From Syntrophaceae bacterium (GTDB lineage Bacteria; Desulfobacterota; Syntrophia; Syntrophales; Smithellaceae): 64,000 nucleotides of DNA. The position numbers were made by a program, and so were the translations under genes. This document shows positions 55,045 through 55,727 of this stretch, in pieces. The notes below the pieces were generated by a model. That model was not told the origin of the DNA and made no database searches. It saw only the letters and a program-made list of their open reading frames with translations. The DNA is taken from the NCBI GenBank assembly GCA_018056765.1, contig JAGPFA010000014.1:90-64089 (forward strand), given 5' to 3'. How positions within the stretch are numbered: the first letter of the stretch is position 1; each line of letters begins with the position of its first letter.

Positions 55045-55686
55045 ATCGGGTAGGAGGCGGGGTCACCCCCGCCGTCCTCCCACACCACCGGACATGCGGT
55101 TCCGCATCCGGCGGTTCATGAAACGCACTGGAGACGTGAACCTGTCTCCGCTTTCGTCCGCCTCCGGGTCGTCGTGTCCGCCTCAGCGCCGGTCAGAGCC
55201 CTGACGGGGTTCCGCCCCATCTCCTCTCTGCCGGTCGTTCCTTACCGGATCGCTTCTGCTTTCATGGGCTCTCCACGTGATCCCGATGCCTACTTGCGGC
55301 GTTTCATGTTCGGCCCTTCAGCCCAGGTTGGCGCCTACTATGGCCTCTGCTGACTTCCGGCAGTCCATCCCACGACCTCTCGACCGCGGTAGCACAAATC
55401 GGCAGACTGCCGGATCTCCCCGGGTATGACGCACAGACCTTCACGCTTATACCTGTCGGATATACGTTACAGCGTTCCGTGCAAGTACCGGGCTTTGACG
55501 ATATGCGCCGCCTTACCCCGCTGTAACGCCTCATATCCGCTTCCTGTTCGTCAGGCCAGCGCTTTGCCTTCGGCTTCCTCCAGATTCGCAGTCACCCGCG
55601 ACACCCTTGCCGTTTAGCTAACTCTTCCCCTTGCCGGGTGAGTAGTGGACTTGCACCACCAAGTCTGTGCGCCCTGCCGGGCGCAC
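55045..55686 (-). mobile_element. ORF-less group II intron ribozyme (class C-like), domains I-VI present, no reverse-transcriptase ORF
   Basis: The minus strand reads 5' GUGCGCCCGGCAGGGCGCAC... with conserved IIC-type blocks: GUUAGCUAAACGGCAAGGGUGUC, GAAUCUGGAGGAAGC, AUAUGAGGC, UACCCGGGGAGAUCCGG and GGAAGUCAGCAGAGGCCAUAGUA. Domain V is GAACCGCCGGAUGCGGAACCGCAUGUCCGGUGGU (55081-55117), followed by a domain VI hairpin with a bulged A. The 3' boundary is uncertain by about 6 nt. Confidence 0.8.
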
Positions 55687-55699
55687 AGACAAAATGAAA

Positions 55700-55727
55700 G
55701 AGTCCGTTTACAAACGGGCTCTTTTTT
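55700..55727 (+). terminator. rho-independent terminator hairpin (probable original tRNA-Asn terminator; IIC intron target stem-loop on the opposite strand)
   Basis: GAGTCCGTTT-AC-AAACGGGCTC followed by TTTTTT. It lies 13 nt from the intron 5' end. Confidence 0.7.

Follow-up and report, generated by a model that had tools for sequence, protein, structure and literature searches.

Identity of the element beside tRNA-Asn

Next to a tRNA-Asn gene in the 64-kb window (the whole stretch of DNA that was analysed, 64,000 nucleotides from a Syntrophaceae bacterium) lies a 0.64-kb gap that was formerly blank in annotation, and the locus raises the question of what this DNA is and how it came to be there. 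Three Rfam families matched its minus strand above their gathering scores: group-II-D1D4-3 (RF02001) at 55430-55601 (141.5 bits, E = 2.9e-29, over the full model), group-II-D1D4-1 (RF01998) at 55313-55392 (59.9 bits), and the domain V/VI family RF00029 at 55045-55116 (46.7 bits, gathering score 40). The termini, GUGCG at 55686-55682 and GAU ending at 55045, fit the group II rule (5' GUGYG, 3' AY) and are alike in sister copies. The Rfam E-values, together with the covariation test described below, exclude chance for the identity of the intron.

The open reading frames inside the element encode 50-76 aa, with none longer than 76 aa. A Pfam search with the longest two, of 76 and 63 aa, matched no family. 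A reverse-transcriptase ORF was absent from the intron, and no RT motifs were found in domain IV. These results confirmed that window positions 55045-55686, read on the minus strand, are a complete group IIC intron ribozyme of 642 nt that lacks an ORF. An earlier sequence-only reading of this DNA had assigned the same class, completeness, strand and coordinates, and every sequence feature it listed was found where it had placed it. The Rfam check that it proposed, with RF00029 and the group-II-D1D4 families, is the one that gave the three matches above. The gap is thus replaced in annotation by a defined mobile ribozyme, the parts of which are given in Table 1.

Table 1 Features of the intron and its flanks, in window coordinates. 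An intron position p (pos) corresponds to window coordinate 55687-p.
Feature	Coordinates	Strand	Basis
tRNA-Asn(GTT), intact, on the 3' exon side	54968-55043	+	ARAGORN; Rfam, 66.9 bits
Whole ORF-less group IIC intron, GUGCG...GAU	55045-55686	-	Rfam matches; ends common to 5 full-length sister copies
5' splice-site consensus GUGCG	55682-55686	-	invariant among 19 relatives
Domain I (pos 6-268): helices I(i) and I(ii), arms Ia, Ib, Ic and Id	55419-55681	-	RF02001, 141.5 bits; consensus structure and covariation
AGGAA of the IIC-specific epsilon' bulge (pos 108-112)	55575-55579	-	invariant columns A108-A112, 19 sequences
EBS1 triplet GCA (pos 181-183), in the 6-nt loop CGCAUA (55502-55507)	55504-55506	-	pairing with the last 3 exon bases across copies
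Domain II (pos 269-335)	55352-55418	-	helices 14-16, 15 pairs changed on both sides; distal hairpin within the RF01998 match
J2/3 linker AGCAGA (pos 336-341)	55346-55351	-	mostly invariant columns (19-sequence alignment); assigned by its place between domains II and III
Domain III (pos 342-375), AUAGUA/GAAG internal loop	55312-55345	-	RF01998; fold; helices 17-18
Domain IV remnant (pos 379-570), basal stem CAUGAAACGC/GCGUUUCAUG	55117-55308	-	fold, z = -2.95; aligns to domain IV of ORF-containing relatives
Start and N-terminal leader remnant: ATG at 55263-55265, MKAEAIR, then stop	55146-55265	-	tblastn; nucleotide alignment
Deletion-junction hairpin GGAGAC-AGGUUCAC-GUCUCC (pos 538-557)	55130-55149	-	fold; junction pattern in 16 other loci
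Domain V (pos 572-603): 32 nt, CGC triad 55111-55113, GAAC loop, 2-nt bulge	55084-55115	-	RF00029; fold
Domain VI (pos 605-640), bulged branch-point A at 55051	55047-55082	-	fold
5' exon end, 4 bases (GUCU), at the IBS1 position	55687-55690	-	scored against EBS1
tRNA-Asn terminator hairpin and U-tract	55696-55730	+	folds of both strands; terminator scan

Structure of the ribozyme

Class IIC introns are recognized by CGC rather than AGC in the domain V basal stem and by a domain V shorter than 34 nt (PMC1702495), and the triad and the length found here agree with both. The AGGAA of the epsilon' bulge is a defining motif of the class (PMC1702495). In the consensus structure the surrounding GGAGGAA (pos 106-112) was unpaired, and its AGGAA was invariant across 19 sequences.

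The formal covariation test covered domains I to III in 19 relatives. The proposed pair cells were paired in 98.2% of cases, compared to 86.6 +/- 0.5% in shuffled alignments, and 49 of 108 pairs were changed on both sides, compared to 28.6 +/- 2.4 after shuffling and 9-16 in slid registers. The observed measures were reached by none of 500 shuffles. For the basal stem of domain IV, compensatory changes relative to the related intron L032 were read from the sequences, and the distal stem of domain VI was seen in the alignment to be compensated in another relative (L009). A 34-mer spanning domain V had exact matches in 77 loci from many phyla, and in the fold of domain VI a single A was bulged, at a distance of 7 nt from the intron's 3' end. 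The textbook domain V and the domain VI with a bulged A that the sequence alone had suggested are borne out by the RF00029 match and by canonical folds.

The substitutions that distinguish this copy sit in loops or preserve pairs; for example, its GUGA tetraloop corresponds to GUAA or GCAA in its sisters, and one of its G-U pairs to A-U. The ribozyme of this copy was shown to be structurally intact. In a single-sequence fold, a perfect local hairpin of 12 bp (GUCU+GUGCGCCC / GGGCGCACAGAC) was able to sequester the 5' splice site. It was considered as the first helix of domain I and rejected, as covariation gave pos 264-268 and 248-258 as the partners; the local hairpin is a site-specific competitor.

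A shared deletion in domain IV

In the sequence-only reading, domain IV was held to be too small for a reverse-transcriptase ORF. This part stands, with 192 nt and no RT motifs, yet domain IV is not empty and holds remnants of the ORF: the start codon of the protein, about 40 degenerate N-terminal codons, and the last 7 or so codons. In a tblastn search with the L032 protein, residues 2-41 matched the remnant with 55% identity (E = 8e-5). In full-length relatives, about 1.25 kb of ORF is present at the place of the deletion-junction hairpin; it is missing here, and the N-terminal and C-terminal remnants lie on either side of the junction.

The same deletion of about 1.25 kb, with an identical junction pattern, was found in 16 other loci (4 genome and 12 metagenome). 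The ORF remnants are common to all copies, which indicates an old founding deletion rather than recent decay at this locus. The junction-bearing copies are 90-97.5% identical, and their 3' flanks are of at least 12 different kinds; comparison of these sequences showed that the deleted form multiplied after the deletion and now stands behind many terminators in Smithella-like genomes. A further candidate for an ORF-less copy (L068) was set aside, since it has a separate deletion, keeps protein residues 356-463 and is without most of domain I.

Distribution of the lineage and its protein-coding relatives

The lineage-specific 5' end was identified at 38 loci, among which 37 different terminator flanks were distinguished; most of these are contig ends with about 120 nt, so that ORF-less and ORF-containing copies are not told apart in this count. 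Twenty-two of the 5' ends were in the metagenome-assembled genome (MAG) BIN3 and 9 in the Smithella AS10tlH2TH_73 MAG. As a multi-copy repeat, the intron is a place at which Smithella-like MAGs break into contigs. The lineage is a repeat family at dozens of terminators in Smithella-like bacteria and a known kind of element. A literature search for Smithella and group II introns returned nothing.

A search for a cousin encoding the intron protein, as the sequence-only reading had advised, found L191 (in MAG BIN3) and L196, which are 95.3% and 96.3% identical to the window in domains I to III, and L008, an ORF-containing copy that lies alongside ORF-less copies in the Smithella AS10tlH2TH_73 MAG. 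As judged from sequence, protein-coding relatives with nearly the same ribozyme core were shown to co-occur with lineage copies in MAGs, a form of assembly that can be mis-binned. No protein-coding intron was found within the 64-kb window by Rfam and tblastn searches. Relative to the ORF-containing introns, identity was 96% in domains I to III and 69% in the domain IV arm. The protein of the related L032 consists of RVT_1 and GIIM only, with no endonuclease domain by Pfam, in line with the class IIC pattern of RT and maturase domains lacking an endonuclease. Beyond this lineage, a simple pattern search recovered ORF-less IIC forms in 62 stretches from many phyla, and also on IncP-1 plasmids. 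These introns, once described as rare in bacteria, are readily found and may reach dozens of copies per genome.

Insertion at terminators and the tRNA-Asn locus

Class IIC introns settle a few nt beyond a terminator stem-loop and have no IBS2. Every complete 5' flank of the junction-bearing copies consists of a terminator hairpin followed by a T-run, and placement just past a terminator stem-loop was also seen in 29 relatives. In 24 of 32 copies, the EBS1 triplet was fully paired to the final three bases of the exon, with a mean of 2.72 pairs compared to 1.63 +/- 0.12 after shuffling.

At the tRNA-Asn locus, a single base (55044) separates the CCA end of the tRNA from the intron and is the first base of the 3' exon (U on the minus strand). 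On the 5' side, the stem-loop used as the target is the complement of the terminator hairpin (55697-55724, minus strand). Folding energy was -17.1 kcal/mol on the plus strand compared to -11.5 kcal/mol on the minus strand, and U6 follows on the plus strand. The much stronger plus-strand hairpin and the U6 after it identify the hairpin as the tRNA-Asn's own terminator, which the intron reads from the opposite face. An antisense intron beside the tRNA-Asn CCA end, parting the tRNA from its apparent terminator, is what had been noticed from the sequence alone, and ARAGORN, Rfam and the folds of both strands agree with that description. The 5' exon's stem-loop had likewise been noticed, but its extent and distance require correction. 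It had been given as 55700-55721 and 13 nt away, a distance obtained because a narrower stem was taken; the full hairpin is 55697-55724, and 10 nt separate its base from the point of insertion. The terminator preference itself, cited in that reading as a property of IIC introns, holds at this site, in the 29 relatives and at 37 sites of the lineage.

The ligated-exon junction predicted for this copy is ...UUUUGUCU / UUGGCUCCCC..., with the slash at the junction. The primary transcript of the tRNA would carry a trailer of about 650 nt antisense to the intron. GC skew was also recorded: the plus strand is C-rich throughout the window, which would be compatible with entry into the lagging-strand template. 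This observation is confounded by gene orientation and by the composition of the intron, and it was given no weight.

Origin of the intron

The element is best explained as a non-autonomous group IIC intron, a retroelement of the self-splicing ribozyme type, that lost its RT/maturase gene from the domain IV loop through one deletion of about 1.25 kb and is copied in trans by the protein of a relative; we place the probability of this reading at roughly 85%. The sequence-only reading had likewise favored a trans-mobilized intron over a decayed copy, and its suggestion gains support at the level of the family, from the 16 loci with the same junction, the 37 terminator sites, and the ORF-containing relatives in the same MAGs.

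In the proposed mechanism, the protein from a full-length relative would bind the retained domain IV stem and aid splicing of the RNA. The RNA-protein particle would reverse-splice into DNA at a distance of about 8-12 nt beyond a terminator hairpin, with the choice of site set by the hairpin and by the 3-bp EBS1-IBS1 pairing. Because the protein is without an endonuclease domain, the cDNA would be primed by the nascent DNA strand at a replication fork. At tRNA-Asn, the intron would have entered the complementary face of the terminator, so that it would come to lie antisense between the tRNA and the terminator. The insertion event is read from the family pattern; a look-up of the exact GIY-YIG and RtcR-like proteins in public assemblies recovered 12 loci, each of which either contains the intron or breaks off within it, and no empty site was seen among them. 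The mechanism is not a new one.

The present state of this copy is a separate matter. It may be a stranded fossil that arrived by retrotransposition, is no longer expressed, spliced or mobile, and is decaying, an account that we consider possible yet less probable than not by a clear distance. Pairing between EBS1 (GCA) and the exon (UCU) is 2 of 3 pairs at this site, including a wobble, unlike the full pairing of most copies. The intron is antisense to all neighboring genes and to the tRNA-Asn transcript, and no sigma-70-like promoter was predicted on the minus strand within 54000-57000. The exon hairpin upstream of the intron would weaken read-through into it, and the 12-bp hairpin competes for its 5' splice site. 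However, no disabling change was seen, domains V and VI match sequence conserved across phyla, and the substitutions peculiar to this copy are confined to loops or keep their pairs. An identical sequence was present in several independent assemblies, and weak IBS1 pairing is no bar to IIC introns, for which a low level of read-through transcription is enough (PMC1702495). This copy probably has low expression and a poor fit to its site, and at tRNA-Asn it is most likely a neutral passenger.

A different account is that the ORF-less RNA acts without an intron protein, as an EBS1-guided hydrolytic endonuclease or even as a self-integrating element, and is kept for that activity. The sequence-only reading had raised a stand-alone ribozyme of this kind by likening the intron to the HYERs. 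HYER-like is a description of biochemistry and no true alternative, because HYERs are themselves ORF-less IIC introns, and HYER-like chemistry is plausible for this RNA. At 642 nt it is close to HYER1 (637 nt; PMC12990946, PMC11754743), its catalytic core is intact, the greater identity of domains I to III than of the domain IV arm fits selection on the ribozyme, and IIC forms lacking an ORF occur widely, in many phyla and also on IncP-1 plasmids. We nevertheless regard retention for a protein-free activity as unlikely. A single copy behind each of many terminators, with an EBS1 that matches the exon, is the footprint of retromobility; protein-coding relatives co-occur, and the retained domain IV stem and start-codon region resemble a maturase-binding site. 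The dimerizing D3 palindrome of HYER1 has no conserved counterpart: the palindrome GGCGCC (pos 352-357) is in part contained in the D3 stem, and sister copies have a plain GUAA loop instead. No promoter was predicted on the strand of this copy, and the literature reviewed does not describe a natural role for HYERs.

The lineage could be more than a parasite of driver proteins, either as a protein-free HYER-type ribozyme that cuts or integrates into single-stranded DNA in vivo or as a terminator-associated RNA kept by the host for a role of its own, though we think this quite improbable. The observations behind this idea are the core at about 96% identity with the domain IV arm at 69%, the many copies in MAGs where a single ORF-containing copy was seen, and the constant position directly behind terminators.

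Misplacement of a repeat between tRNA and terminator by the assembler is very improbable: the intron is repeated in many copies and interrupts assemblies, different assemblies of this locus disagree on its interior, and in one contig (L092) the 5' flank seen here is joined to the 3' flank of another copy, but both junctions occur with identical flanks in at least 10 independent assemblies (ENA, JGI, NCBI), including a 496-kb contig, and they obey the exact ends (GUGCG...GAU) and the target rule of the family. The EBS1 triplet is among the features that vary between assemblies of this site, and the exact interior sequence, including EBS1, may blend several copies.

The lineage is a natural collection of small IIC ribozymes, intact and diverse in their EBS1 triplets, together with candidate driver proteins, and is possibly useful for HYER-type or targetron-type tools.

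Comparison with known systems

The closest parallel is the ORF-less TeI3 family of Thermosynechococcus elongatus, which arose by one deletion with shared breakpoints, keeps ORF remnants and is mobilized in trans by driver proteins (Mohr et al. 2010, PMC2882425). In TeI3 and in the Smithella-like lineage alike, every copy shows the breakpoints of one ancestral deletion that removed the domain IV ORF, recognizable remnants of the ORF's N- and C-terminal parts persist with a disrupted frame, and copies stand at many sites with EBS sequences that vary among them. Protein-coding relatives able to act in trans share the genome of TeI3; for the lineage described here, candidates for this role occur in two MAGs that carry it. 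The two differ in host, a thermophilic cyanobacterium compared to a Smithella-like syntroph, and in machinery. TeI3 and TeI4 are larger, their protein has DNA-binding and endonuclease domains, and targets are chosen by EBS/IBS pairing (PMC2882425), whereas the Smithella-like lineage is of class IIC, has no endonuclease domain, and uses a terminator hairpin with only 3 bp of pairing. Mobilization in trans was established experimentally for TeI3 and is inferred for the lineage described here.

The HYERs (Liu et al. 2024, Science 383:eadh4859), compared here by their description in PMC11754743 and PMC12990946, share with this intron class IIC membership, the lack of an ORF, a size of about 0.6 kb, and substrate recognition by base-pairing through a short guide loop. 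As described there, HYERs are defined by measured hydrolytic cleavage of DNA and RNA, and HYER1 and HYER5 dimerize via a D3 palindrome; the intron at tRNA-Asn is known from its sequence, and its GGCGCC, partly inside the D3 stem, is missing in sister copies.

B.h.I1 of Bacillus halodurans (PMC1702495) has the same CGC triad, shortened domain V and AGGAA bulge. Introns of its type use 3-4 bp of EBS1-IBS1 pairing and insert 3-11 nt downstream of a terminator stem-loop (PMC1702495), a range that includes the 10 nt seen here. They carry an ORF of about 1.3 kb in domain IV, in contrast to the present intron, in which the ORF is deleted and 192 nt of the domain are left.

In bacteria, genomes with ORF-less introns almost always hold related protein-coding introns as well (PMC4424553). 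The survey of Simon et al. 2008, as reported in PMC4424553, found ORF-less introns beside close protein-coding relatives, as in two MAGs that carry the lineage here. According to the same account, such introns were rare, with a few in 225 genomes, in contrast to the dozens of copies per MAG reached by the Smithella-like lineage.

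Identity and structure of the intron

A sequence-only reading had placed a group II intron at this location, and its presence was confirmed by a minus-strand reading of 54700-56000 and by an Rfam scan of the window. The covariance models for domains V/VI and for the group-II-D1D4 families gave three matches (46.7-141.5 bits), all on the minus strand and in the correct order, and Rfam and sequence searches detected no further group II signal elsewhere within the 64-kb window. The description of the element as ORF-less also held, as the ORFs within it are only 50-76 aa long and Pfam returned no family match for the two longest (76 and 63 aa).

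Coordinates of features of the window intron, its surroundings and its relatives
Feature	Locus	Coordinates	Strand	Remarks
Intron	window	55045-55686	minus	642 nt; GUGCG at 55686, GAU at 55045
RF02001 (group-II-D1D4-3)	window	55430-55601	minus	full-model match, 141.5 bits, E 2.9e-29
RF01998 (D1D4-1)	window	55313-55392	minus	59.9 bits
RF00029 (domains V/VI)	window	55045-55116	minus	46.7 bits
Domain IV 5' arm	window	55146-55307	minus	162 nt; intron positions 380-541
tRNA-Asn(GTT)	window	54968-55043	plus	ARAGORN
Exon hairpin	window	55696-55725	plus	-17.1 kcal/mol, then U6
Splice-site hairpin	window	55663-55690		exon GUCU + GUGCGCCC able to pair with GGGCGCACAGAC; perfect 12 bp
GIY-YIG nuclease ORF	window	55739-56050		downstream of intron; Pfam E 1.1e-17
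Sister copy	L079	3682-3760	sense	behind terminator of tRNA-like 3' end (...GGTTCAATCCC...CCA), as read from its flank
Hybrid locus	L092	6200-6760		window 5' flank (GIY-YIG side), intron copy, 3' flank of the L085/L078 site
Plasmid relative	L164	2501-3115		~615 nt, ORF-less, unannotated; Aeromonas caviae IncP-1 plasmid pKAM345_1
Tandem ORF-less IIC copies	L009	5347-6192		second starts 3 nt after first
Nested introns	L044	2993-6818		second RT-encoding intron (protein 36% identical) apparently at ~position 356 (domain III) of outer intron of the window-intron family
Truncated copy	L068	3156-3761		first 138 nt, protein residues 356-463, DV/DVI

Domains DI-DIII of 19 family members were aligned, and a consensus structure of 108 pairs was obtained. 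Cells at these positions were paired in 98.2% of cases, compared to 86.6 ± 0.5% after shuffling, and two-sided changes occurred in 49 pairs, compared to 28.6 ± 2.4 after shuffling and 9-16 with a slid register. None of 500 shuffles matched any observed covariation measure. The window copy retains the consensus helices. Class IIC hallmarks were taken as named in PMC1702495: domain V is 32 nt long with a CGC triad, AGGAA is invariant in the alignment and lies in an unpaired bulge of the consensus structure, and the bulged A of domain VI noted earlier was seen in the fold as a single A, 7 nt from the 3' end. Positions 6-10 covary with 264-268 and positions 15-25 with 248-258, which ruled out the strong local 5'-end hairpin of the single-sequence fold as a native helix. 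The 12-bp splice-site hairpin competes with helices I(i) and I(ii), and the 9-mer GUCUGUGCG is present twice, once at the 5' junction and again at intron positions 250-258.

Loss of the ORF from domain IV

A 34-mer spanning domain V was found exactly in 77 loci from many phyla. Most of these are introns of ~1.9 kb in which an ORF of ~1.25 kb lies between the equivalents of window intron positions 1-541 and 550-642; the protein of one retrieved relative, L032, carries RVT_1 and GIIM and lacks the endonuclease domain. Domain IV alignment showed that the window intron retains the protein start (ATG at position 422, MKAEAIR and then a stop) as well as the last ~7 codons. A leader remnant of ~120 nt was recovered by tblastn (aa 2-41, E 8e-5), and the same search with an intron-protein query found no RT motif in the window intron. 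The flanks of the deletion pair as a hairpin, GGAGAC-AGGUUCAC-GUCUCC, and since both sides build this one hairpin, the ORF was excised from the loop of a domain IV stem.

The core and the domain IV 5' arm differ in conservation. DI-DIII are 95-97% identical among the window-type copies, two protein-coding loci (L196 and L191) and the ORF-less L079, whereas in the arm the window-type copies share only 68-69% identity with the other three; the L079 and L196 arms are 89% identical. The arm may have changed fast once coding constraint was lost, in which case the core of the ORF-less lineage would have been under strong purifying selection. Alternatively, the arm may have been swapped in by recombination from an unsampled lineage.

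Spread of the deleted form

A junction-spanning pattern was found at 12 metagenome loci and 4 genome loci, of which Smithella sp. AS10tlH2TH_73 holds three and an uncultured Smithella the fourth. Five junction copies are full-length (90.3-97.5% identity to the window copy). Junction-bearing copies differ in what follows them, with at least 12 distinct 3' flanks; upstream, all complete 5' flanks consist of a terminator hairpin with a T-run that ends 8-11 nt before GUGCG. A lineage-specific 5'-end pattern matched 38 loci and, among them, 37 distinct terminator flanks; the MAG 'Deltaproteobacteria bacterium BIN3' accounts for 22 and Smithella sp. AS10tlH2TH_73 for 9. Almost all of these copies are situated where a contig stops, as expected of a repeat that breaks assemblies, and with only ~120 nt at the 5' end visible they may be either ORF-less or ORF-containing.

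Protein-coding relatives were also found. L191, in BIN3, has a frame open for 366 residues (DI-DIII 95.3% identical to the window), L196 a frame open over its full 473 codons (96.3%), and the ORF-containing L008 is in the Smithella sp. AS10tlH2TH_73 MAG, which also carries ORF-less copies. The shared junction at many sites and the coding relatives in the same MAGs support, at the family level, the earlier suggestion of a trans-mobilised intron.

Target recognition

A 6-nt loop at positions 180-185 varies in sequence among copies. In 24 of 32 distinct copies, bases 2-4 of this loop all pair with the three bases that end the exon (CAA/UUG, GAA/UUC, GAU/AUC and AAU/AUU, for example). The copies average 2.72 pairs, compared to 1.63 ± 0.12 when the exons were shuffled 500 times (maximum 1.97), and no pairing signal was seen at other offsets. 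These results identify the triplet as EBS1. Lineage sites end mostly in ATT or GTT, which fits AAU. At the window site, EBS1 GCA forms two of three pairs, including a wobble, with exon end UCU, and this triplet varies between assemblies.

Insertion site and state of the window copy

Only base 55044 separates the CCA of tRNA-Asn from the last base of the intron. The minus-strand fold of the exon hairpin contains a C/A mismatch and reaches -11.5 kcal/mol; because the plus-strand fold is stronger and is followed by U6, the hairpin is the tRNA-Asn terminator. The intron used the complementary face of this terminator, 10 nt from the stem base, and the claim that the insertion split the tRNA from its own terminator was correct. 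The position of L079 behind a tRNA-like terminator indicates that the family may use such terminators more than once. Window 55739-64000 also encodes an RtcR-like sigma-54 activator, type I restriction-modification (HsdR/M/S), an AAA_15/AAA_21 ATPase and a DUF2130 gene, and looks like a defence island.

The window ribozyme seems to have no visibly broken part: DV and DVI match the widely conserved sequence, and substitutions specific to this copy are in loops or preserve pairs. The copy is badly placed. IBS1 pairs imperfectly, promoter prediction gave none on the minus strand within 54000-57000, the neighbouring genes and tRNA are all on the opposite strand, and in a single-sequence fold the 5' exon is able to trap the 5' splice site.

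At least 10 independent assemblies contain the intron-bearing locus, which is therefore real and fixed in the source population; no empty site with an uninterrupted tRNA and terminator was found among the 12 loci retrieved, all of which carry the intron or end inside it. Within 53000-57000, all differences between assemblies are inside the intron, each equal to a variant of other copies, and EBS1 reads GCA, AAU, AGU or ACA (window compared with L091, L094, L095 and L102, the same locus from other assemblies). These differences arose either by gene conversion or because short-read assemblers mixed the copies, and the interior sequence is to be read with that caveat. The hybrid L092 is either a chimeric assembly or the product of two intron copies having recombined.

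Wider occurrence and comparison with known systems

A census pattern for ORF-less IIC introns (domain III end, 171-231 nt, IIC domain V) matched 62 stretches in many phyla, with more than 25 copies in one Dialister chromosome and more than 12 in one gammaproteobacterial MAG. Tandem arrangements are seen in L009 and in Dialister sp. UW_FK_DIAL1_1 (L125, L126, L132, L133, L160), where several copy pairs lie 659 nt apart. BLAST identified unannotated relatives of ~615-646 nt on IncP-1 and E. coli plasmids. The L164 element lies between a ParB-family partition gene and the next gene upstream of kfrB; further plasmids of Aeromonas and Pseudomonas carry it too, and relatives of ~646-943 nt are on E. 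coli plasmids. L044 looks like a twintron. L068 lacks the RT and most of domain I and was rejected as an ORF-less ribozyme, being a truncated copy from a different deletion.

By definition, a HYER is an IIC intron that lacks an ORF and whose hydrolytic activity has been measured (PMC11754743; PMC12990946). On architecture alone the window intron would count among the HYERs. The HYER1-type D3 palindrome has no conserved counterpart in its family. The window element is a further member of an already known kind. Bacterial ORF-less introns nearly always co-reside with related protein-coding introns in one genome (PMC4424553), a rule that the Smithella-type ORF-less family and its protein-coding relatives fit, and the TeI3 family of T. 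elongatus (PMC2882425) is a close parallel.
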